Shown in pieces: positions 35,510 to 46,765 of a stretch of 54,213 nt of DNA. The number at the start of each line of letters is the position of its first letter. Positions within the stretch are counted from its first letter, which is position 1. Below the pieces are notes generated by a model. The model saw nothing but the letters and a program-made list of their open reading frames with translations, was not told where the DNA came from and searched no databases. The stretch is from IMG/VR virus record IMGVR_UViG_2721755676_000004. The stretch is one strand, 5' to 3'. Source of the DNA: a virus (lineage: Duplodnaviria > Heunggongvirae > Uroviricota > Caudoviricetes). Both the position numbers and the translations under genes were made by a program.

Positions 35510-35596
35510 ATGGAAAATAACAAGTTCGCACATCTCGCTCCTTTTTTATCCGTAATCCTTTTCGCTTGTTGTTTTATATGGGCATTATTTTTATAA
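35510..35596 (+). CDS. Small hydrophobic peptide (28 aa), candidate small membrane protein
   Basis: ATG preceded by AAGGTGG at optimal spacing; MENNKFAHLAPFLSVILFACCFIWALFL; lies in a very AT-rich spacer. Confidence 0.3.
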   Translation: MENNKFAHLAPFLSVILFACCFIWALFL

Positions 35597-36042
35597 AGTA
35601 GCCACATGATAAGTTGCTGGAATCATATTTCCCACTCAAGTCATTAACATTTGATAAGATATATCTAAAAGGACGCCTTTACATTATTTATGTGTATATA
35701 ATTTATTTATATACACAGTAAAGGTATCCTGGGAAAATACTTATCGTTAAAAAATACATCATAAATAATCAAGCTGAAATTTCAGAACACAACTAATACA
35801 CACAATAAGGTTCAGTAACAATAATCTATGTGGACTACATCGAGATTTTTTGATTAAACTTTAATAACTTATTCCTAACACACAGAATGCATAAACTAAA
35901 AGTAAAACAAATAGTTATACGAAAAACAACCATATTTATTATATCTTCTCCTCTAATCAACATATCAATTATGTGTTTCATAACAGCTTGACATAACCCT
36001 CAAAAACACGCATTTATAATGCATGTTTTTGAGGAGGTGGTT

Positions 36043-36381
36043 ATGACACACAAGAGAATTCCTAAAGATTGGGTAATCAAACGCTCAACTCCGTTCTTCA
36101 CAAAAGAGAACGTACCTTCAGCGTTATTAACACATCATAATACAGCAGCAGGTGTTTTTGGGCAGTTGTGCGTAATGGAAGGCACTGTAACATATTATGG
36201 TTTTACTGATGAGAATGCTACTGAACCGGAGATAAAAGTAGTCATTAATGCTGGCGCTTTTGCAACAAGCCCACCACAATACTGGCACCGTGTTGAACTA
36301 AGCGATGATGCTCAGTTTAATATTAACTTTTGGGTCGCTCCAGACTTCTCGGGCGAAAAAGTCTATAGCACCAAAAAATAG
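36043..36381 (+). CDS. YeaR-like DUF1971 protein
   Basis: GAGGAGG SD before ATG at 36043; RSTPFF...VMEGTVTYYGFTDE...AGAFATSPPQYWH...FNINFWVAP resembles E. coli YeaR. Confidence 0.7.
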   Translation: MTHKRIPKDWVIKRSTPFFTKENVPSALLTHHNTAAGVFGQLCVMEGTVTYYGFTDENATEPEIKVVINAGAFATSPPQYWHRVELSDDAQFNINFWVAPDFSGEKVYSTKK

Positions 36382-37104
36382 ATGATCATATTAAAAATGC
36401 TTTAACAGTCAGACCCGGCAGGGCTATCCCCGACGGGTCTCATTTTTGTAAATATATTGGTTCTACATTGACAGGAGACTTCAACCATAAGAAGTAATCT
36501 GAATACTTGAGCAATAAATTTACTTAAGATTAATGAGCGCACCTTGCCGGACAAAGATAAACCAAGGTAACACCTTTTTTCTAGCCAGTATGTAATCAAT
36601 CAGAAAGCCGCTCCATAAGAACAACAGCAAGACAATAAATTGCCATTACAGCCGCAATAGCTAGCGCACATTTGAGAACCAGCACGACAACCTCCTGTAT
36701 TGGACGTACACCAGTTCTGATAAATATGAGGCTGTCTCATCATTGATTCAATATAACTATTGGGTATAGTTTCTGTGATTTTGTTCTGTAGAAATGGAAC
36801 ACAACAACCAGTCACCACCAGCACTTCTTTAAATACGCCAAGTCCGACGCAAGCTAACCTTCTAGTCCGCTTTGAGCGAGGAGCGGACCAAACCCGGCCA
36901 ACTGACTCTTAAAGGGGCCGCAGGAATTTTTCGTCTGAACTTTCGAAGCTCCTCTCCCTGAAGACAGAAAACTTCTGTGTGCTGTGGGAATATTGAATCT
37001 TTGCCTTAGATATAAATAATTTTATCCCGCCTGAAGTTTACATTATTTTATTTATCTGTTTTTCTAAATCAGACTGCACTCCTTACTTAAATCAGGAGCC
37101 AGTC

Positions 37105-38304
37105 ATGCCATTTGTTATTTATGTGTTTACTATCAGTGCCTTTGCGCTCGGACTCGCGGAATTTGTCCCCATTGGGCTGACAGACGTTATGGCTCAGGGG
37201 TTGTGTGTGGGTGTGGAGCAGACCGGGGCAGCGGTTACAACCTATGCACTGGGGGCAACGTTCGCGGCACCCGTACTGTCTGCGCTGACAGCAAGCTGGA
37301 GCCGGAAAAATGTAATGCTTACAACTGCCGTTGTGTTTACTGCCGGTAGTCTGGCGGCCGCGTTTGCAGCCACATTACCTCAGCTCCTGTTAGCGCGGTT
37401 CATTGCTGGTCTGGGACACGGCCTGTTTCTGGCTGCGGCATCCAGTACCGCAGCTCGTCTTGCTGGACCGGGTAAAGCAGGCAGAGCGGTGGCTGTGGTA
37501 TTTGGTGGCTTTACTCTGGCGATGGCAATCGGCGTACCGCTGAGTACATGGTTGGGGGGGGTGGTCTCATGGCGTCCAGTTCTCGGCGCTATTGCCGCTT
37601 TTGGCGCGTTCGGATTCCTTGGACTGTTGTTCGGTATGAAAGATCCCGTACGCAGCGTGCCCGGTGAACATAGTGACTCAGCAATGCAGAATATCGGCAT
37701 GCTGTTTAACCGTAAGTTGCTGGCCGGCGCGCTGGTTACGGTGCTGGCGTATGCAGGCTCGTTTACGGCTTACACCTTTATCGCACCTATTCTGACGCAG
37801 GTGACAGGGGTTACCGGAGCAACGGTGAGTCTGTTTATGCTGGTTTACGGTATTACAGCTGCGGTAGGTAATATTCTTGGTGGGAAACTTACCGACAGCA
37901 TGGGGGTTAATCGTGCCAATATACTCATCATTAGCGGCATTGTTGTTGTCGTGCTTGGTATGTGGCTGCTGTCATCCTCACCGGTGAGCATGGGCATTCT
38001 GGTTGCGCTGCTGGGTATGGTGACATTTGCCGCAGTGCCGGCACTGCAGGCCCGTCTGATTGGTGTCGCTGAGCAACATGCTCCTCATGCGCATGGTGTT
38101 GCTGCCGGCCTGAATATTGCGGGCTTCAACTCAGGTATAGCGCTGGGATCAGTACTGGGCAGCATTACTATAAGCCACGCCGGTATCGTGTATACCGGTA
38201 TCAGCGGTGCGATTGTTTCTCTGCTCGGCCTGCTGTTGCTGCTTGCACAAATCCGTCGCAGCCACAGTCGTAAATTTCAACAGGTTAAAATCGTAGGCCA
38301 GTAA
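37105..38304 (+). CDS. MFS transporter (12 TM)
   Basis: 399-aa polytopic hydrophobic protein with MFS-like loop motifs. Confidence 0.85.
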   Translation: MPFVIYVFTISAFALGLAEFVPIGLTDVMAQGLCVGVEQTGAAVTTYALGATFAAPVLSALTASWSRKNVMLTTAVVFTAGSLAAAFAATLPQLLLARFIAGLGHGLFLAAASSTAARLAGPGKAGRAVAVVFGGFTLAMAIGVPLSTWLGGVVSWRPVLGAIAAFGAFGFLGLLFGMKDPVRSVPGEHSDSAMQNIGMLFNRKLLAGALVTVLAYAGSFTAYTFIAPILTQVTGVTGATVSLFMLVYGITAAVGNILGGKLTDSMGVNRANILIISGIVVVVLGMWLLSSSPVSMGILVALLGMVTFAAVPALQARLIGVAEQHAPHAHGVAAGLNIAGFNSGIALGSVLGSITISHAGIVYTGISGAIVSLLGLLLLLAQIRRSHSRKFQQVKIVGQ

Positions 38305-38315
38305 AGGGAGGTTAT

Positions 38316-39008
38316 ATGCTTACCCGTGAAAATATGCTTAATGGCACATTTGTCAGGGTGCATGAAGCGCTGCTCCCGGCGAATATGCTCTGGGACGCTG
38401 AAAAAATACGCGCATCAATGAACTCTACTCTGGAGGAGCGCCCGACGGGTGCTCCTGTCTGGATATTTGCCTACGGGTCATTGATGTGGAATCCCGTGCT
38501 GGCGATTGAAGAAATGCAACGGGCCCGTCTGAAAGGATGGCAGCGCAGTTTCTGCATTCGTTTGATATCCGGACGAGCGACTCCTGATGTCCCCGGCAGG
38601 ATGTTATCGCTCGACGAAGGTGGAATTACCGAAGGTATTGCGTTCAGACTGCCGGAATCGACTCTTATTAATGAGCTGGAAATTGTCTGGACGCGCGAGA
38701 TGATAACCGGTCTTTACCGTCCGGTCTGGGCAGACGTTTCGCTAGGAAACGGTGAGGAAATTCAGGCGCTGGCTTTCGTATCAGACAGACTGCATCCGCA
38801 TTATGAACAGGACAATCTTACAGCGACCGTAGCGTTGAGCATCGCATCTGCCCGTGGAGACATTGGCACGAATGCAGATTATGTATGGAAACTGCAGGCC
38901 ACTCTGGGTGCGTTGGGAATACGGAATGATTACGTGAGTGAACTGGCCCTTGCTCTGCATGAGGCTCCCTGTAACGATAAACTTCATCAGCGAGGCGCTT
39001 CACTATGA
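38316..39008 (+). CDS. ChaC-family gamma-glutamylcyclotransferase-like protein
   Basis: 230 aa; VWIFAYGSLMWNP motif and overall similarity to E. coli ChaC. Confidence 0.75.
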   Translation: MLTRENMLNGTFVRVHEALLPANMLWDAEKIRASMNSTLEERPTGAPVWIFAYGSLMWNPVLAIEEMQRARLKGWQRSFCIRLISGRATPDVPGRMLSLDEGGITEGIAFRLPESTLINELEIVWTREMITGLYRPVWADVSLGNGEEIQALAFVSDRLHPHYEQDNLTATVALSIASARGDIGTNADYVWKLQATLGALGIRNDYVSELALALHEAPCNDKLHQRGASL

Positions 39009-39886
39009 GCCATCTGAGCCATCTGCGAACGTTTCTTGAGGCCTATCGCTCTGGCTCCTTTTCAAAGGCGGCAGAACTACTGGGCATCACTCAGCCCGCG
39101 GCGTCACAGCATATCCAGTCTCTTGAGACTCTGGTTGGTAAGCGTCTGTTTATCAGGCAGGCCAGAGGCGTGACGGCAACCGAAGCTGCGGATGAGCTTG
39201 CCCGCTCAGTTTCACCCTTCATTGATGGTCTGGAAGAAAAGCTGTCCTCTTTCCGGTCAGGCTCTGTACGCGGGGGAACAATTAATCTGGCAGGACCGCC
39301 AGATTTTATTCATTCCCGGCTTGGGACAGTAATGGCTCCACTAATGAAGGAGGGGTATCGCCTACGCTTTCATACCGGCAATAAGCAACGTATTTATTCC
39401 CTTTTGCATGACGGGAGCGCCGATCTCGCTGTTACCGCATCTATGCCTGATGACCGTCTGTACGGCTATGCACATCTACTGACTGAACGCATGCTCCTTG
39501 TTCATGCTCCCGCCATGTCAGAGATCATCGGATCAGAACCTGGTGCTGAAACGCTTGCCTCATTACCGCTGATTGCTTATGACGAAGAGTTGCCACTGAT
39601 TAGAGCGCTCTGGGCCTCCATGTTTCAGAGAGCCCCTGAGATGCAGGCTACATTCACCATTCCGGATTTACGTATTATCCGCGACTTGGTCTGTGACGGC
39701 CACGGGTGGACAGTGCTGCCGGATTATCACTGTGACAATGACCTGAAAAGTGGTCGCCTGATTTCAGTGACACCTGCAGACCTCGCTCCGACTAATCATC
39801 TTTATCTGGTCTGGAACAAAAGGACGGCTAATAACAGCCGAACCGCCTATGTTCGGGATTACATTCTTAAAACGTTTCCGCGTTGA
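39005..39886 (+). CDS. LysR-family transcriptional regulator
   Basis: 293 aa; N-terminal HTH (FSKAAELLGITQPAASQHIQSLE) plus LysR substrate-binding domain; overlaps ChaC-like stop. Confidence 0.85.
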   Translation: MSHLSHLRTFLEAYRSGSFSKAAELLGITQPAASQHIQSLETLVGKRLFIRQARGVTATEAADELARSVSPFIDGLEEKLSSFRSGSVRGGTINLAGPPDFIHSRLGTVMAPLMKEGYRLRFHTGNKQRIYSLLHDGSADLAVTASMPDDRLYGYAHLLTERMLLVHAPAMSEIIGSEPGAETLASLPLIAYDEELPLIRALWASMFQRAPEMQATFTIPDLRIIRDLVCDGHGWTVLPDYHCDNDLKSGRLISVTPADLAPTNHLYLVWNKRTANNSRTAYVRDYILKTFPR

Positions 39887-39932
39887 TGTTTGAAACGGAT
39901 GATTGGCGATGCGTATCATAAGTTACGTATGT

Positions 39933-39960
39933 CCGCTTCTGGCACAAAGCAGACGCCCAC
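39933..39960. repeat. 28-bp repeat copy A (TTGGCACAAAGCNGAC..CCAC core)
   Basis: Near-identical to 43606..43633, direct orientation. Confidence 0.5.
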
Positions 39961-40016
39961 TCTCACGCGAATGCTTTGCCCTTGACTTGCCAACAACCGT
40001 ATCGCTTGCTCCGCAA

Positions 40017-41309
40017 CTATGGTTTTTTATTAGAATCTTCGCCACTAAATAAATTATAATAAATTGATTTTATTAGATATCTATCAGAATCTATATGGTC
40101 AGCACGAGTAGCATGCTCTAATGTTTCAAATGCTAGGGTTTGTGCGGCTTCAGCAAAAATTCCAGGCCAACCCTTACTCAGCATCGACAGTCCTTTAAGT
40201 ACCCTTATCTGAATTTCCCTCATACTGGCACCATCGCGCGCAACAGGTGAGAAAAAGTCTTCAAGTAGATCGTTATTCTGAAGTGGTGCAACATGTACAG
40301 AAGGATATTTCACTTCTATTTCATCAGATTTATTCTGCGCGTAAGCGGAAAGTATACGTACACCTCTGCCAATGACATCAATGGCGGTTCCAGGATCGTT
40401 CACTGCGGGGGAAAGGGCTCGGCAGGCTATTTCGGCCATGACGCTAAGACAAAATCGGGGGTCCTGAGCAAATGAACGTACATCCGAGACAATAATCGTC
40501 TCAAGTAAATCGGTGCTGATTGATGACTCCTGGCCCTGACTCAGGTACAAAACTGGCGTGGACGGATGTATGAAACTGCCCGGCTGCGCCACGAGGTATA
40601 CATGACGGGGATCATTGGTCAGCAGCTTGCTGAGTTTCACCATATCAACATATTCAACATAGCCAATCTTTTTCGGATAAACTGCAACCGTTCCTTTCGG
40701 CTGTTCATTGTTCTCAAGCCATGGATATCCGCCGAGACAGGGATTTCTTGCTCTCGCAATAAATGTTTCGATGGCCGCCTGTTCTACTTTTGCCGTTGTC
40801 TCACCAACCCTCCCCAGAGAGGTCAAATGCTGTATCCAGCGAAGCAATGTGATGAGGATTAAGGCAATGACAACCAGTGTTACAATGAATAAAATGACTC
40901 TCCCCCTTTCTCCATAAGCTCCCATATTGAGGGCAATAATCCCTACCAGACTGAAGAGAAAAGAACCGATGAAGGTGGCCAGTACATTTTGTGTGGTGAC
41001 GTCTTCAACAACTAAACGAGTAGCTCTGGGAGTCACATTAGTAGTGGCTGAACCGTAGGCTGTGACCATGATGCTCAGCGAAAATGTGGTCACGGCCAGC
41101 ATACTCGATGCCAGTATGTTCAGAATGTTATCGACTGCTTCCGCACCAACCTTCACGGAAACCGACTCAGGTATCATTGATTTAAAAAGAATTGATAAAA
41201 GGGCCGTTATTATTGCGACAATTGCGAATAACGTTGCCCTGAACCATAGTTTTTTAAATGTCTGCTTCAGCATCCATTTCCAGCGTGAAATCATTCTGCA
41301 TTCTCTCAT
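40017..41309 (-). CDS. Integral membrane protein with C-terminal soluble domain
   Basis: 430 aa; several N-terminal TM helices; start may be internal. Confidence 0.6.
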   Translation of the reverse strand: MRECRMISRWKWMLKQTFKKLWFRATLFAIVAIITALLSILFKSMIPESVSVKVGAEAVDNILNILASSMLAVTTFSLSIMVTAYGSATTNVTPRATRLVVEDVTTQNVLATFIGSFLFSLVGIIALNMGAYGERGRVILFIVTLVVIALILITLLRWIQHLTSLGRVGETTAKVEQAAIETFIARARNPCLGGYPWLENNEQPKGTVAVYPKKIGYVEYVDMVKLSKLLTNDPRHVYLVAQPGSFIHPSTPVLYLSQGQESSISTDLLETIIVSDVRSFAQDPRFCLSVMAEIACRALSPAVNDPGTAIDVIGRGVRILSAYAQNKSDEIEVKYPSVHVAPLQNNDLLEDFFSPVARDGASMREIQIRVLKGLSMLSKGWPGIFAEAAQTLAFETLEHATRADHIDSDRYLIKSIYYNLFSGEDSNKKP

Positions 41310-41357
41310 ATTGCAGCCGGGATAAATAAATGCCGCCTCTGTGGCGGCATGTTGCTG

Positions 41358-43361
41358 TTAACGAACCAGATGCAGGAAGTGCAGGTGTTTTTCGTACTGG
41401 TCCAGTATGTCATTAATCAGCTGTTCCTGATTCCAGCCCATTACATCATAATTTTGGCCGCCCTCTTTGAGATAGACTTCAGCGCGATAATATCGATGTT
41501 GTTCACTCTGCTGCTCATCATTATCCAGCGCAGCGAGCGCGAAGGTCGGTGAGTTATACCCGCGAAGCCTCACTTCATATATATAATTCAGCTCGTTGCC
41601 CAAATCGACTTCAAGGCGAATACGATCCTCGGCGGCGTCACTGATGTGGCTTATCGTTCCCTGCTTGTTAAGTTCCTCCTGAACCAGCGTCATGGCGGGT
41701 TGGATAATGTCGTCCATAAAACGTTTCACAAGAGAGCGCTTCGGCAAATACGCGATATTGCGTAACCTTCTCTGCCAGGGAATTGGGTTACGTGCAGCCG
41801 TAGGAGCAATAGTCGCCATGCTAAGGCTTTCACGCTTGGTCAAATCCCGACGCAGGGCTTTTAACAGTCCGTATATGGATATTAATAAGATAACTGAGAA
41901 GGGCAATGCACTCGCTATCGTTACGGTTTGCAACGCACTCAGCCCCCCTGCGATCAGCAGGGCAATAGCAACAACGCCCATGAGCGATGCCCAGAAAATT
42001 CGCTGCCAGACGGGCGTGTTTGCCACCCCACCTGATGCCAGAGTATCCACAACCATTGCCCCCGAATCAGCAGACGTTACAAAGAAGACGATGACCATCG
42101 CCATTGCAATGAATGACAGCACGGAAGAGAACGGGAAATGCTCCAGGAAATTAAACAGGGCAAGCGCAACATCCTGCTGAACGGTATTGGCGAGGTCAGT
42201 GGCGCCCTGGTTCATGATGAGATAGATGGCGCTGTTTCCAAACACCGTCATCCACATGAGCGTAAAGCCGGCGGGAACAAACAACACGCCAGTCACGAAC
42301 TCACGAATTGTCCTGCCGCGGGAAACGCGTGCAATGAACATACCTACAAACGGCGACCATGAAAGCCACCATCCCCAGTATAATAATGTCCAGCCCCCCA
42401 GCCAGTTGCTCGACTTGGGTTCATACGCGTAAAGGTTGAACGTTTTACTCACCAGTTCCGACAGATAACCACCCGTATTTTCCACAAATGACTTCAGCAG
42501 AAGCACAGTGGGACCCAGGCACAAGACCAGCGCCAGGAGCAACACTGCCAGGCCCAGATTAAGCTCAGACAGGATGCGTATTCCCTTGTCCAGGCCGGAC
42601 ACCACCGAAATCGTCGCTAACCCCGTGATGACCACGATCAAAATGACCTGTACCGTTTCATTGATGGGCACGCCGAAAAGATGGTTCAAACCGGCATTCA
42701 CCTGCAATACACCGTAACCCAGCGATGTTGCAACGCCAAAGACAGTGCCTATCACGGCGAAGATATCAACCGCGTGGCCTATAGGCCCGTAAATGCGATC
42801 GCCGATAATGGGATAGAGCGCAGAACGCAGCGTTAAAGGCAGACCGTGACGGTAACTGAAAAAGGCCAGAATCAGCGCCACGATGGCATAAATTGCCCAT
42901 GCGTGCAGACCCCAGTGGAAGAACGTCAGGCGCATGGCTTCCTTCGCTGCCGCAACGGTCTCTGGAGTGCCGACAGGTGGCGAAAGATAATGCATCACAG
43001 GTTCGGCAACGCCAAAGAACATCAGGCCGATCCCCATCCCTGCCGAAAAAAGCATCGCGAACCAGGAGTGGTAGCTGAAATCAGGCTGCGCATGGTCTGG
43101 GCCCAGCTTTATATCACCGTAACGTGAGAGTCCAAGGAACGTGACGCTCAGTAAAATCAGGGCCACAGCAAGTATGTAGAACCAGCTGGCATTCGTGAAG
43201 ATTTGTTGCTGAAGTAGTTTAAAATTTTTGTCGGCGACATCCGGGAATACGGCGGCAAAGGCGACAAGAAGGAAAATTAGCAAAGCAGATGTAAAGAATA
43301 CCGCTTTGTTAATCTGGCTTGTAGACTTCTTTGGGGTTGTATCATTTTCACTCATAATCAT
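41358..43361 (-). CDS. BCCT-family transporter (BetT/CaiT-like)
   Basis: 667 aa; strong resemblance to E. coli BetT including WTLFYW/WWxAWSPFVG-type motifs and long cytoplasmic C-tail. Confidence 0.85.
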   Translation of the reverse strand: MIMSENDTTPKKSTSQINKAVFFTSALLIFLLVAFAAVFPDVADKNFKLLQQQIFTNASWFYILAVALILLSVTFLGLSRYGDIKLGPDHAQPDFSYHSWFAMLFSAGMGIGLMFFGVAEPVMHYLSPPVGTPETVAAAKEAMRLTFFHWGLHAWAIYAIVALILAFFSYRHGLPLTLRSALYPIIGDRIYGPIGHAVDIFAVIGTVFGVATSLGYGVLQVNAGLNHLFGVPINETVQVILIVVITGLATISVVSGLDKGIRILSELNLGLAVLLLALVLCLGPTVLLLKSFVENTGGYLSELVSKTFNLYAYEPKSSNWLGGWTLLYWGWWLSWSPFVGMFIARVSRGRTIREFVTGVLFVPAGFTLMWMTVFGNSAIYLIMNQGATDLANTVQQDVALALFNFLEHFPFSSVLSFIAMAMVIVFFVTSADSGAMVVDTLASGGVANTPVWQRIFWASLMGVVAIALLIAGGLSALQTVTIASALPFSVILLISIYGLLKALRRDLTKRESLSMATIAPTAARNPIPWQRRLRNIAYLPKRSLVKRFMDDIIQPAMTLVQEELNKQGTISHISDAAEDRIRLEVDLGNELNYIYEVRLRGYNSPTFALAALDNDEQQSEQHRYYRAEVYLKEGGQNYDVMGWNQEQLINDILDQYEKHLHFLHLVR

Positions 43362-43605
43362 TTATTCCATTAATTAAATCCGCACTGGATAGAAGGTACT
43401 ACCTCTCACAGAGTAGCAAAGTTCAACTGGCTATGCGGGGTTAATCGGAATGCATGGTGGAATGAGTGCCGATACAAATCATCCTATATTCTAAGGAGTT
43501 TTAAGTTACTCAGCCTGCCAATTACTGGGGCATTTAATTTGTATGATCTGTATCAAAGCTGGGATATAAGTTAAGTGAAGTATATTAGGCACGAATTACC
43601 AGCGT

Positions 43606-43633
43606 CTGCTCTTGGCACAAAGCGGACAACCAC
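43606..43633. repeat. 28-bp repeat copy B (TTGGCACAAAGCNGAC..CCAC core)
   Basis: Direct repeat of 39933..39960; sits upstream of the BCCT gene. Confidence 0.5.
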
Positions 43634-43695
43634 GCTAGCTCTACCCTGTGCCACAAAATGTCAATTTGCATCTGAACTAATGCACTTTAATCTCG

Positions 43696-44118
43696 TCACT
43701 TCAATAAATACCGAACATCCCCCTGATAAAACGACAATATGCGCTGCATAACTTCGCTCTTCCGGCACTCGCGACAGATTATGTTTAGGCGACTGTCGTA
43801 GCGACGTATTTCTCCGTCAGGTAATGACCAGATAAGGTCCGGATCAACCACAACCGGTTTCTTCAGCTTTGCCCTCGATAATTTTTTGCGGGCATTTTGC
43901 CAGTCTTTACGAGCCTGTTCAGACGGGAATAACCCGTAGCCAGAATTGTATACATCGCCACTGGCAACCAGCTCTCTGGCCAGAACGCTCATCAGATATC
44001 TTGTTGCCCCAGTTTTAGCTTCCAGTTGTCGTAACGTCTCGCGCCCACTCTGGCGTACGAGTTCAAGAACCTGCCCTTTAATTTTTTCCCGCTCTTCTTG
44101 TGTAAAAACTTTTGCCAC
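43696..44118 (-). CDS. Hypothetical early-region protein with C-terminal Cys cluster
   Basis: 140 aa; downstream of replication initiator; CRECR motif. Confidence 0.5.
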   Translation of the reverse strand: MAKVFTQEEREKIKGQVLELVRQSGRETLRQLEAKTGATRYLMSVLARELVASGDVYNSGYGLFPSEQARKDWQNARKKLSRAKLKKPVVVDPDLIWSLPDGEIRRYDSRLNIICRECRKSEVMQRILSFYQGDVRYLLK

Positions 44119-44158
44119 AAGCCCTCCTGAAAATTACCTCATGACCAGAAATTAACAC

Positions 44159-45235
44159 TTACCCCCTGAAGCCCGGCGGAATTTCGTTATCCGGTTCAGA
44201 AATATGATTCACACAACGCTGGTTGTTCGTGCCGCTTACCGGGAGCAACCAGGGGTTCTCAAAATTCCGGTCCGGTCCAAAAAACGTCGTCGCTCGCTGA
44301 ACAAATTCCGTTCCCGTTTTCCCGGTAGCCGCCAAGTATCTTGCGTAACGCCTCACGCCATCCAGCATGGCCTCTGGTGGCACCCCCTCGCGTAATCTGG
44401 CCTTCCAGGCACTGAAAGCGGATTTCTTCGGGTTTGCCCCAGCACGCAACGGGTACTCCCGCCAGACCTGTTCGAACACATCCGGATAATCCACTCGTCC
44501 CACAGACTGCCCGGTGTTTTCCGGGACTACCCGATCGGCTTCCCGCTGAATGGCGGAATCGGCTTCAGGCTGCTGCAGTTGGTGTGATTGCTCCGCCCTT
44601 GCGGTCATCACCTGCTGCACAGCGCCCGAATCGGCTTTCAGCGCATACGCTGAATCGGCTTCCGGTGTCGTGCCTGCTGGCTGACCAAGATTGACGGTCT
44701 GAACATCCCCTGCCTGGTTCGTGGCGTTTTTTACGCCATGGACCATAGTGTTTTGATCTTCTTGATCTGTATCTTTATCTGTATCTTTATCTGTCGTGAC
44801 TCGTCGTGACATGTGCGTGACATTTCGTGACGCGCCGTGACAATCGCCATTTTGTTCCCGCTTTCTTTCCCTCTCTCGCTGCGCCCTCTTGCGCTCTGCA
44901 GGAGATTTTGCGGTTTGCGAAATATTGCCGTTGTCCTCTTTAAGCACCTGGCGTTTTTCCCATCCAGTGATTAAATCACCATCAAGTACCCGCCCCTGCA
45001 TCGTCTGCAAAATTGAATCAATTACCTCTTCTGTCACGTCGAGCGCACTTGCCAAATCTTCTGTCGTGACATCAATGTGACCTCGCGTGACATTTCGTGA
45101 CGCGCTCACCAGGAGGTGGATATACACTGCCATCACTGTTGCAATTGGCTGTCCTGACACCCTGGCAATTGTTCGCCACTTAGGGTCATTTGGCATGTCA
45201 TGCCATAATCTGAGCCAGGCGTTAGCCATACTCAC
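44159..45235 (-). CDS. Phage replication initiation protein with internal iterons
   Basis: 358 aa; N-terminal winged-helix-like region, basic linker, C-terminal domain; contains two clusters of CGTGAC direct repeats. Confidence 0.65.
   Translation of the reverse strand: MSMANAWLRLWHDMPNDPKWRTIARVSGQPIATVMAVYIHLLVSASRNVTRGHIDVTTEDLASALDVTEEVIDSILQTMQGRVLDGDLITGWEKRQVLKEDNGNISQTAKSPAERKRAQRERERKREQNGDCHGASRNVTHMSRRVTTDKDTDKDTDQEDQNTMVHGVKNATNQAGDVQTVNLGQPAGTTPEADSAYALKADSGAVQQVMTARAEQSHQLQQPEADSAIQREADRVVPENTGQSVGRVDYPDVFEQVWREYPLRAGANPKKSAFSAWKARLREGVPPEAMLDGVRRYARYLAATGKTGTEFVQRATTFFGPDRNFENPWLLPVSGTNNQRCVNHISEPDNEIPPGFRG
44784..44831. repeat. Iteron cluster 1 (5 x CGTGAC at ~10-bp spacing), candidate ori
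   Basis: tgtCGTGACtcgtCGTGACatgtgCGTGACatttCGTGACgcgcCGTGACa; preceded by ATCTTTATCTGT tandem repeats. Confidence 0.6.
45061..45105. repeat. Iteron cluster 2 (CGTGAC repeats)
   Basis: ctgtCGTGACatcaatGTGACctcgCGTGACatttCGTGACgcg. Confidence 0.55.
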
Positions 45236-45300
45236 CTCTTTTGATACCGAATCTTTTTACTCACAAATTGCCGGAAGTGATCCGGTATGAATATTGCGAG

Positions 45301-45726
45301 TCAATGCACAGCCACAATATTTCCTGCAGGGCCACCACGATTCATCTGGTTGAAACCAGCGATCGCCACTGCGACAAAATCATCAGCGTCTCTCACCAGT
45401 CGTTCCCGCGTCTCCACTAGTTCCCGAAAATAGGCTGAGCTATGGCTGCGCATTCGGGCCACCAGCAGAGGTGGCATTGCTTTTTCGATAGCTGGTAACA
45501 ACGCCTGAATTTTTTCAACTGCATCAGGGGTGTCTTTCTCTACCCAGCGGAAAATTTTCTGGGTATTGCGAGCCAGGGCTTCCGGATGGCTGTCGTCATA
45601 CAGTTCTGGGAACGTCATACCCAGTTCAAAATAAGCCCTGGTTATTTCAGCTGCCGGAACTTTTTCACCGTCCGGATGCGCCCAGGCATTCATCGCCATG
45701 CGGATGTGTTCATGCTTGATTTTCAT
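45301..45726 (-). CDS. ydaT: YdaT-like protein
   Basis: 141 aa; position downstream of Cro-like gene as in Rac; assignment from memory of Rac gene order and size. Confidence 0.55.
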   Translation of the reverse strand: MKIKHEHIRMAMNAWAHPDGEKVPAAEITRAYFELGMTFPELYDDSHPEALARNTQKIFRWVEKDTPDAVEKIQALLPAIEKAMPPLLVARMRSHSSAYFRELVETRERLVRDADDFVAVAIAGFNQMNRGGPAGNIVAVH

Positions 45727-45991
45727 GAATCAAGCTCCTAGAAAGTGGTTGTGTTAACATTTTGGTATCTTCCAGCTCGGGCCAAATATTCATCCAATCA
45801 AAAGGCCTTAGTTGCTGACGTGTAACTTCACCATTACTGGCTCGCTCAATAAGGACACATAACGATGCCCCTAACACTTGACCTTTACTCAATGCCTTTC
45901 TTAGATAACCGATGCTGGTACCACACTCGCATGCAAACATACGCTGTTCATCTGACGAAAGAGAATTGAGAAATATTCTTAATTCTTCCAT
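45710..45991 (-). CDS. ydaS: Cro/YdaS-like HTH regulator
   Basis: 93 aa; divergent from repressor gene; HTH region; overlaps ydaT-like start. Confidence 0.6.
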   Translation of the reverse strand: MEELRIFLNSLSSDEQRMFACECGTSIGYLRKALSKGQVLGASLCVLIERASNGEVTRQQLRPFDWMNIWPELEDTKMLTQPLSRSLIHENQA

Positions 45992-46091
45992 AGCTACTCC
46001 TTAGTAAACACAGCAAAGAATACCCATAGGTAAACAAAAGTCAATACCCACAGGTTGTTTACCTTGCAGTAATCGCATCTATTATTTACCT
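45992..46091. promoter_or_regulatory. Divergent promoter/operator region between Cro-like and repressor genes
   Basis: Inverted copies of TACCCATAGGTAAAC / TTTACCTATGG; related palindromes recur at 46553..46592. Confidence 0.5.
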
Positions 46092-46511
46092 ATGGACAAA
46101 TATGAATTTAGACGACAGCAACTCATCAAAATTCGTGATGAGAAATGCGATGGTAAAGCGGTTAACGTGGCCAGAAAGATCGGGCGCGAGCCTTCTTATG
46201 TATCAAGAATGTTGTACCCAGAGGGGAAAAAGGGAAAAAAACGGATCGCTGATGATATGGTGGAGATTATCGAAGAGTCCTTTGGGTTACCCCGGGGATG
46301 GATGGATGGTATCGTTTCATCATCAACGAACACAGCCTCCAGTTATGAAACAAGGGTTCTAACGCCACGACAACGTATTTTTTTAGATCTCTTAGACGAA
46401 CTGCCAGAAAGTGAAGCGGATAACTTATTAAAAACTCTTGAAGAGAAAAAACAGTATTACAATATGATCTACGAAGAAATCCGTAAAAAGAAAGCACAAA
46501 ACGCATCATAG
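46092..46511 (+). CDS. racR: Prophage repressor (RacR-like)
   Basis: 139 aa; HTH; divergently transcribed from Cro-like gene. Confidence 0.65.
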   Translation: MDKYEFRRQQLIKIRDEKCDGKAVNVARKIGREPSYVSRMLYPEGKKGKKRIADDMVEIIEESFGLPRGWMDGIVSSSTNTASSYETRVLTPRQRIFLDLLDELPESEADNLLKTLEEKKQYYNMIYEEIRKKKAQNAS

Positions 46512-46765
46512 CTCACCAAACAACTAGTCACCAGTTAAGACACCGCAAAAAGTTACCCATGGGTATTTACTTTTTAAATACCTATGGGTATCCTTCTTTT
46601 CATACCAACCCACCCCGCCCCACAGAATGCAGGGCAATACTTCGAGTTACCAGGCAGTGGTCAGGGGTTAAGTAGCCAGCCCGAGGCGTAAGAACATGAC
46701 GGCGGGATTCAAATTTTGCAGTGCAGCAGTTAGTTCCGCCACCCGGCGTTAAGGGGAGAGATAAG

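Follow-up and report, generated by a model that had tools for sequence, protein, structure and literature searches.

A Probable Replication Origin with Two Iteron Arrays Inside the Initiator Gene of a Rac-Type Lambdoid Prophage

Introduction

In the closest described systems, the origin of phage replication lies inside the gene of its own initiator. In lambda and the Stx phages, iterons and an AT-rich tract are found in the middle of gene O, and each lambda iteron is an inverted repeat (PMC7466680). In phage SPP1, oriL combines direct repeats with an AT-rich unwinding element inside gene 38 (PMC6316719); the gene spans 35578-36348 and the cloned oriL fragment 35801-36151. Here we describe a similar layout in a stretch of E. 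coli DNA of 54,213 nucleotides (IMG/VR record IMGVR_UViG_2721755676_000004; the whole stretch is called the window below). The layout is found in the replication initiator gene of a Rac-type prophage adjoining ttcA (44159..45235, minus strand), an open reading frame (ORF) in the program-made list that encodes 358 amino acids (aa) from a GTG at 45235, or 356 aa from the ATG at 45229 that is used in RefSeq.

A sequence-only reading of the window had proposed the lambda O/ori arrangement, and hence a likely origin, for this gene. Comparison with homologues supports the proposal. The expected parts all lie within the initiator gene and succeed one another as in lambda: read with transcription, the N-terminal DNA-binding domain is followed by a repeat array, an AT-rich tract, and the C-terminal domain. 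The segment from about 44715 to 45105 is probably the vegetative replication origin of this Rac-type lambdoid prophage, located inside the gene of its own initiator. The likeness to lambda is one of layout and not of homology.

Two Repeat Arrays in the Initiator Gene

The array at the junction of the N- and C-terminal domains, designated array B (44795..44841, minus strand), consists of five GTCACG hexamers in the codons of aa 132-148 ('CHGASRNVTHMSRRVT'). Read as CGTGAC on the plus strand, the copies start at 44795, 44805, 44816, 44826, and 44836, with spacings of 10, 11, 10, and 10 bp; on the gene strand, they start at nucleotides (nt) 395, 405, 415, 426, and 436 of the gene. The earlier reading had the five copies and their helical spacing right, but its range (44784..44831) lay about 10 bp too far to the left and missed the last copy.

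The second array, array A (45065..45101, minus strand), contains three GTCACG hexamers and one GTCACA in the N-domain codons of aa 45-57, which in the AlphaFold2 model form the end of helix 31-47 and the following loop (peptide 'SRNVTRGHIDVT'). A cluster of three to four copies had been noted here, and this agrees with the exact copies at 45065, 45086, and 45096 plus an imperfect TGTGAC at 45076-45081; on the gene strand, GTCACG is found at nt 135, 145, and 166 and GTCACA at nt 155. The two arrays have in common a 21-bp perfect direct repeat, GCGCGTCACGAAATGTCACGC, at 44815-44835 and 45085-45105, exactly 270 bp (90 codons) apart; recombination between these copies would remove the winged helix in frame. 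A single inverted hexamer (45033..45038, plus strand; CGTGAC on the gene strand) falls in the D-V-T codons at the turn of the helix-turn-helix, and many homologues have an inverted copy at the same place (gene nt 192/198), which protein conservation may explain.

The clustering of the hexamers is far from random. GTCACG/CGTGAC occurs 31 times in the 54-kb window, and 9 of the 31 occurrences are inside 310 bp of the initiator gene. The Poisson probability of at least 5 hexamers in 47 bp is about 2e-11, and none of 20000 random placements gave 5 hexamers in 50 bp or 9 in 320 bp. Tandem Repeats Finder (TRF) ranked the period-10 array (44793-44842) second by score in the whole window, after the 12-mer tandem next to it.

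The number of units in array B can vary. In two viral contigs (L022 and L032), array B has six copies instead of five (gene nt 416-467), and the ORFs stop at 159 aa. Since an extra 10-bp unit shifts the reading frame, a change in copy number can truncate the initiator to its N-domain. Many database relatives of the initiator are listed as partial, with lengths of 150-228 aa. The distance between arrays A and B ranges from about 221 to 350 bp among the homologues, and inspection of these distances by eye gave no obvious helical phase between the two arrays.

The Adjoining AT-Rich Tract

Directly beside array B lies an AT-rich tract of 12-mer tandems (44746..44794), with about 35% guanine plus cytosine (GC) compared to about 54% for the whole gene and with a purine-rich gene strand. 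TRF found 2.9 copies of TCTTTATCTGTA at 44760-44794 with 95% matches, and the 12-mers on the gene strand encode DKDTDKDTDQED, in agreement with the tandem repeats and linker peptide described from the sequence alone. An AT-rich element beside the iterons, which the same reading had suggested looking for, is therefore present: the segment 44740-44799, at about 35% GC, is the GC minimum of the gene. From its composition and position, the tract at 44746-44794 is a candidate DNA unwinding element. The same arrangement recurs in the family. In 56 of 57 homologues, the AT content of the 40 nt that follow array B exceeds that of the gene, with a mean excess of +0.21, and the gene strand of these 40 nt is 75% purine on average (57 homologues).

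Among 68 distinct close alleles from E. coli and phages, insertions of 6, 12, or 24 bp in or beside the ACAGATAAAGAT tract bring the gene length to 1083, 1089, or 1101 nt. Across these alleles, there is hardly any change in the hexamers of either array, despite the varying length of the 12-mer tract. Two GATC (Dam) sites, 9 bp apart at 44755-44758 and 44764-44767, lie at the far edge of the tract, before an inverted repeat with 13-bp arms and a 5-nt loop (44715..44745). This inverted repeat forms the most stable local hairpin of the gene (-8.7 kcal/mol). The lambda origin, too, has a palindrome beside its AT-rich tract; for the present family, such a feature was rejected, with a median hairpin rank of 0.5 over 57 genes, and the inverted repeat is a local observation only.

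The presence of the tract bears on the alternative that survives best, namely, that the arrays are initiator sites for control, either by autorepression through a roadblock or by handcuffing as in plasmid iterons, and that the true origin is elsewhere. Two arrays about 260 bp apart in a transcribed gene are not needed by the lambda model, array A has no adjoining AT-rich tract, and the cro/repressor intergenic region is more AT-rich than the candidate element. Nevertheless, we consider this alternative unlikely, as the AT- and purine-rich tract after array B in 56 of 57 homologues reproduces the arrangement of the proven lambda and SPP1 origins (PMC7466680, PMC6316719), and the 54-kb window contains no other repeat array. 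A control role for array A, moreover, is compatible with an origin at array B and does not compete with it.

The Arrays Follow the N-Terminal Domain of the Initiator

Homologues were collected by protein homology only, blind to the DNA pattern, from one-genome-per-species contigs. This sample comprised 80 loci with 77 full-length genes and included Shigella, Serratia, Pseudomonas, Bordetella, Stenotrophomonas, Burkholderia, and Sphingomonas. A homology search of viral contigs yielded nothing but copies of the window gene at 99% identity, uninformative for covariation; it was the species-genome collection that gave diversity. Most homologues found come from Gamma-, Beta-, and Alphaproteobacteria, and phages of Microcystis and Cylindrospermopsis gave weak matches to the N-domain.

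A linker array, defined as at least three periodic copies of a 6-mer, was found in 56 of the 77 full-length homologues. In 42 of these 56, the same core occurred at least twice in the upstream array-A region, compared to 88 of 2252 comparisons for foreign cores. The cores differ between subfamilies (GTCACG, GTAACG(C), CGAACGC, GGAACGC, GCAACGC, and GTGACGC, with ACG(C) common to all), and where they differ, arrays A and B change together. The peptides of the N-domain loop and of the linker shift with the core, from 'SRNVTRGH' to 'SNATERGRTQ' or 'SSVTQGDADVTRG'. In one clade, array A lies in a six-residue insertion about 13 codons further upstream, and its displacement into a clade-specific insertion points to a requirement at the DNA level. 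Judged from these comparisons, the second cluster is a conserved element of the family architecture and not an accidental extra.

The arrays stay with the N-domain across several different C-domain partners. Pseudomonas phage P7869 has only the N-domain in common with the window gene (about 70% identity), combined with another C-domain and with a primase/helicase downstream. Its N-domain codons contain four GTCACG, an inverted copy is also present, and in the linker four TGTCACGC spaced at 10 bp precede an AT- and purine-rich tract. Conversely, the protein of Shigella Stx phage 75/02 has only the C-domain in common, and its gene is without a GTCACG array.

A scan in the opposite direction, for viral contigs with three phased GTCACG, returned 120 loci. 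The N-domain is encoded in 61 of these contigs, with N-domain identities from 99% down to 27%, and in 60 of the 61, the array lies within that ORF on the same strand. The other 59 contigs have no detectable N-domain. A few of them, such as L024, L081, and L120, contain more than one array and may represent either unrelated elements or further divergent members of the family. In one GC-rich viral contig (L034:62-1381, IMGVR_UViG_3300020200_001741), an ORF with the N-part 'GWLRLDDGYATHPKL…AAERAREYRKRKRE' is followed by about 17 CGTCACG at 10-11-bp spacing, a layout like that of the window gene, yet the ORF went undetected by the family profile; from its GC content, we suspect that L034 is an actinobacterial phage.

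A Residue Pair in the Basic Helix Tracks the Repeat Core

The alignment columns were screened for positions common to two distant GTCACG clades and different in all other classes. The screen yielded three columns only, all of them in a basic helix of the N-domain (aa 112-129), where residues 116 and 119 lie within the motif E-R-K116-R-A-Q119-R-E-R. The combination K/Q at 116/119 was accompanied by the core GTC-ACG in 31 of 31 scored genes, and three further K/Q genes have GTCAC-type repeats that were missed by the regular expression. A or S at 116 with W at 119 went with CGA-ACG (9/10), T/Y with GTG-ACG (4/4), V at 116 with Y, F, or H at 119 with GTA-ACG (6/6), and S/H with GCA-ACG (3/3).

This association holds at every level of overall divergence. 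For gene pairs with 20-40% N-domain identity, the residue pair was shared by 64 of 69 pairs with the same core and by 0 of 310 with different cores. The corresponding counts were 119/125 and 2/310 at 40-55% identity, 173/215 and 5/534 at 55-70%, and 145/156 and 0/51 at identities of at least 70%. Among same-core pairs, sharing of the residue pair thus amounted to 80% in the 55-70% bin and to 93-95% in the other three identity bins, compared to 0-1% for different-core pairs, with the proviso that the counts come from related sequences and that the pairs are not independent events. An explanation by overlap of the residue codons with the repeats was rejected, because the two codons never coincide with a repeat copy (0 of 60) and show synonymous variation within a class (AAG/AAA, CAG/CAA), which places the association at the protein level. 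These results suggest that helix 112-129 may read the variable half of the core.

The same results argue against a second alternative, in which the arrays bind another protein, such as a host factor or the YdaT-like or DUF977 product, and are merely carried in the initiator gene. YdaS/YdaT-like and DUF977 genes do flank the initiator in both the window and phage Tritos. However, the arrays accompany the N-domain also in Pseudomonas, Aeromonas, Bordetella, Stenotrophomonas, and other hosts in which the neighbour genes differ, including P7869 with its downstream primase/helicase, and the core tracks two residues of the initiator itself. We therefore regard binding by another protein as quite improbable.

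Selection on the Repeats as DNA

In array B, the codon positions of successive hexamers are 2, 3, 1, 3, 1; those of array A are 3, 1, 2, 1. As the hexamers fall in all three frames, the peptides 'CHGASRNVTHMSRRVT' and 'SRNVTRGHIDVT' ('CH..SR..VT') represent a translated DNA repeat and not a peptide repeat. In 23 GTCACG-type genes from 23 species, the majority-codon frequency at conserved residues was 0.95 under array A and 0.52 elsewhere (Mann-Whitney p = 7e-7 for this synonymous-site contrast). An explanation as a peptide repeat was rejected on the evidence of reading frame and synonymous sites. Collectively, the comparisons show selection on the repeats at the DNA level and tie them to the N-terminal part of the initiator.

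The idea that the repeats have no DNA function, being products of slippage or a selected linker peptide conserved by protein constraint or by recombination at the module junction, might appeal to the low complexity of the linker, to its variable length among E. coli alleles, and to the exchange of C-domains at the linker junction, but it is hardly credible in view of the 10/11-bp spacing that puts the hexamers in all three frames with no peptide repeat, the frozen synonymous positions of array A, the switch of both arrays to the same new core in other subfamilies, and hexamers that stay near-invariant in the 68 E. coli alleles while the 12-mer tract changes in length.

The Initiator Protein

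A Pfam search with the whole 358-aa protein gave no match above threshold and none at E up to 0.01. The alignment to Phage_rep_org_N, the 'N-terminal phage replisome organiser', is full-length (aa 7-125 to positions 1-119 of 121) and spans the winged helix and the basic helix, with scores below the curated cut-offs (16.2 versus 23.3 bits for Pfam PF09681, and 15.4 versus 49.8 for TIGR01714). Only 1 of 14 family members matched it, and 6 of the 14 gave weak matches to HTH_Crp_2. On these scores, the window initiator family would at best be a distant sister family of Phage_rep_org_N.

An AlphaFold2 model of aa 1-130 (mean predicted local distance difference test score, pLDDT, 80.6) has helices at 6-16, 18-27, and 31-47. 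A loop (aa 48-57) leads to a helix-turn-helix (58-65, 69-79) and its beta wing (80-90); then come a disordered segment (98-109) and the basic helix (112-129). The predicted winged helix-turn-helix is encoded at 44966..45064 (minus strand); array A adjoins these codons on the upstream side, and array B lies about 125 bp downstream of them. The codons of the basic helix, PAERKRAQRERERKREQN, occupy 44849..44902 (minus strand), with K116 at 44888-44890 and Q119 at 44879-44881. A fold search of the Protein Data Bank (PDB) with the N-domain model found only generic winged-helix proteins (CAP, MarR) at E > 0.3 and no informative relative.

The C-terminal part (aa 200-358) is common to other lambdoid 'O-like' proteins with unrelated N-domains; in some relatives, the C-terminal domain presumably resembles that of DnaT. 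The last 25 residues of the window protein (...VNHISEPDNEIPPGFRG; 44162..44236, minus strand) are near-identical to the C-terminus of the host primosomal protein DnaT. The NCBIfam DnaT profile NF002770 matches aa 335-358 only, to positions 156-179 of 179, with 19.2 bits against a cut-off of 201, and the PDB DnaT chains 6aep, 2ru8, and 9zbt match only the last 21-25 residues. The initiator was rejected as a full DnaT, as there is no full-length profile match. In the preprimosome, the C-terminal domain of DnaT docks on PriA, and DnaT is thought to recruit DnaB/DnaC (PMC13377028, PMC5778457). The likeness suggests that the tail may mimic DnaT to reach the host helicase-loading proteins.

Weighing the Origin Assignment

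Several points count against an origin at this place or limit what can be concluded about it. First, 21 of the 77 homologues are without an array by the exact-6-mer criterion. Second, the non-independence of the gene pairs makes the residue-core result a strong lead and not proof. Third, the AlphaFold model puts helix 112-129 after a disordered linker, and its placement relative to the winged helix is undefined by the model. Fourth, the lambda model offers no explanation of what array A does. Fifth, AT content higher than that of the proposed tract is found in the wider neighbourhood, as at 46420-46479 (23% GC). Sixth, experimental binding, unwinding, or origin activity for the family was not found in the searchable literature, which misses most papers in subscription journals. 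The lack of DnaA boxes may be listed here as well, yet it argues neither way: none was found in or near the arrays, and the window has 5 matches compared to 5.7 expected by chance, the nearest at 44099. These points notwithstanding, we still consider an origin at about 44715 to 45105 probable.

The features of the locus suggest how such an origin could work. Initiator monomers would bind the direct repeats of array B in head-to-tail order, all on the same face of the DNA. Residues 116 and 119 of helix 112-129 would read the core's variable 5' half, and the winged helix-turn-helix would supply further contacts or oligomerisation. The initiator assembled on array B, with a possible bridge to array A about 260 bp upstream, would strain and open the adjoining AT-rich tract. 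Transcription from an upstream pR-like promoter, for which the evidence is weak, may run across the site. The C-terminal domain with its DnaT-like tail would then bring in the host helicase-loading machinery. Because arrays A and B bracket the winged-helix codons, the predicted sites and the domain that may read them are passed on together as one short cassette.

A more far-reaching proposal combines all of these elements and is put forward only tentatively, as a possibility that we think rather doubtful as a whole. It holds that the window gene belongs to a large uncharacterised initiator family with a split origin, a two-residue code, a portable cassette, and a start of replication through the DnaT-like tail. 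The origin would be divided between two arrays of hexamers, spaced by one helical turn, on either side of the winged-helix codons. The code, set by the basic helix, would pair K/Q with GTCACG, A/W with CGAACG, T/Y with GTGACG, V/Y with GTAACG, and S/H with GCAACG. The cassette would be a self-contained unit of about 450 bp that sets the replication compatibility groups of prophages and could be reprogrammed by two substitutions. The start would use the host restart primosome instead of a phage-encoded loader. The searchable literature contains no description of the initiator family; as most subscription-journal papers are absent from it, an earlier description is possible.

Prophage Setting

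The prophage begins with intR, xisR, recET, kilR, and sieB, followed by a repressor/cro-like pair and a YdaT-like gene; then come the initiator gene, a DUF977 gene, and cargo genes including a BCCT transporter. DNA matching the initiator gene was found in 2698 of 5426 complete E. coli genomes, and the gene is also present in sequenced phages with names of their own, such as Tritos, Evi, and vB_EcoS-689R5. In RefSeq, it is a hypothetical protein (WP_001262352.1, 12001-13071 of L001), whereas PHROGs assigns it to phrog_3729 'replication initiation protein' (E = 2e-257). NCBI names close relatives of the 358-aa protein 'phage replisome organizer', and phage records name the gene 'replication protein O', 'primosomal protein I', or 'replisome organiser'. 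The inspected stretches of three records (CP53, Tritos, and vB_EcoS-689R5) have no origin feature annotated.

Neither the window nor Tritos has a helicase or loader gene after the initiator. In the window, this place is taken by the DUF977 (YdaW-like) gene (43696-44118, minus strand), and in Tritos, DUF977 likewise follows directly, with YdaS/YdaT-like and DUF977 genes flanking the initiator as in the window. The gene after the initiator is annotated LygF in vB_EcoS-689R5, and a DnaC-like gene has this place in Shigella phage 75/02 Stx, which has a related C-domain.

A pR-like promoter candidate (46017..46044, minus strand; 9/12 matches) was found by consensus scan upstream of the ydaS-like, ydaT-like, and initiator genes, and transcription from it would pass through both arrays. 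The scan gave 3 sites compared to 2.4 expected by chance and is weak evidence alone; promoter and terminator counts were both at chance level, and only the pR-like site was noteworthy. An Rfam scan of 43400-46600 gave no credible match.

Downstream of the replication module, the prophage carries non-phage cargo (window 36500-43400). Among its genes are those for an MFS transporter, a gamma-glutamylcyclotransferase, and a LysR regulator, as well as a DUF2254 gene and the gene of a 667-aa BCCT transporter (41358-43361). K-12 Rac has trkG at the corresponding place.

Implications

The origin itself is what a specialist would expect; the two-array design found across the family and the residue-to-core code are the noteworthy parts. 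A widespread gene, present in about half of the complete E. coli genomes searched, carries only the label 'hypothetical protein' in RefSeq. The location of its origin gives a concrete target for studies of induction and copy-number amplification of Rac-type prophages, and it would allow the construction of small plasmids on this origin and the prediction of compatibility for co-resident prophages. The family also offers a natural experiment in protein-DNA recognition, in which at least five cores each have a corresponding pair of residues along one face of the basic helix. Finally, arrays that flank the DNA-binding codons illustrate a way for an initiator to keep its sites through exchanges of the C-terminal recruiting domains.

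Comparison with Known Systems

Compared to the gene O origin of lambda and the Stx phages, the window origin exhibits several similarities. First, it lies in the middle of the gene, between a DNA-binding N-terminal part and a recruiting C-terminal part. Second, several repeats, which here are predicted initiator sites, are followed by an AT-rich tract in the direction of transcription. Third, the repeats are translated as a linker peptide, and the gene is downstream of a cro/cII-type early operon. The differences are equally clear. There is no homology to lambda O, Phage_rep_O being absent at E up to 1 for 14 N-domains. The window units are 10-11-bp direct repeats with an asymmetric core of 6-7 bp and no internal dyad symmetry, unlike the lambda iterons, and a second array lies about 260 bp upstream in the N-domain codons. 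Furthermore, the window gene is not followed by a P-like or DnaC-like loader gene, and its protein has a DnaT-like tail.

SPP1 G38P and oriL likewise place direct repeats together with an AT-rich element inside the organizer's own gene, and 'replisome organizer' is the name that NCBI gives to close relatives of the window protein. Homology to G38P was rejected, as hhalign of a 55-sequence N-domain profile gave a probability of 0.1% and E = 0.57, and G38P matches Phg_2220_C rather than the family of the window protein. SPP1 also has a loader and a helicase of its own (G39P, G40P), and the distance to its second site, oriR, is about 13 kb, compared to 260 bp here.

K-12 Rac (ydaS-ydaT-ydaU-ydaV-ydaW; oriJ) is of the same prophage type and has the same ttcA integration site, with the flanking genes intR, xisR, recET, kilR, sieB, ydaS/ydaT-like, and DUF977/ydaW. 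However, K-12 Rac has ydaU (DUF1376) and the DnaC-like ydaV between ydaT and ydaW, where the window has the 358-aa gene with no DUF1376 match. The oriJ papers (PMC3945230; the reference list of PMC11014345) treat the K-12 module. As the replication module is swapped relative to K-12 Rac, published oriJ work does not describe the window origin.

Iteron plasmids of the P1, F, and R6K types combine a winged-helix initiator with phased direct repeats in two groups of sites near the initiator gene, and their iterons, about 17-22 bp long and intergenic, covary with the initiator and define specificity groups. The window origin has in common with them phased direct repeats in two groups that covary with a winged-helix initiator, the binding being predicted here. 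In contrast, the window units are 10-11 bp long and lie inside coding sequence, and neither the Pfam search nor the PDB fold search found homology of the window initiator to the Rep families. Taken together, the arrangement differs from known origin-in-gene systems in three respects: direct units that are short, have an asymmetric core, and recur once in each turn of the helix; the presence of two arrays, which flank the winged-helix codons; and a replication module that does without a loader gene.

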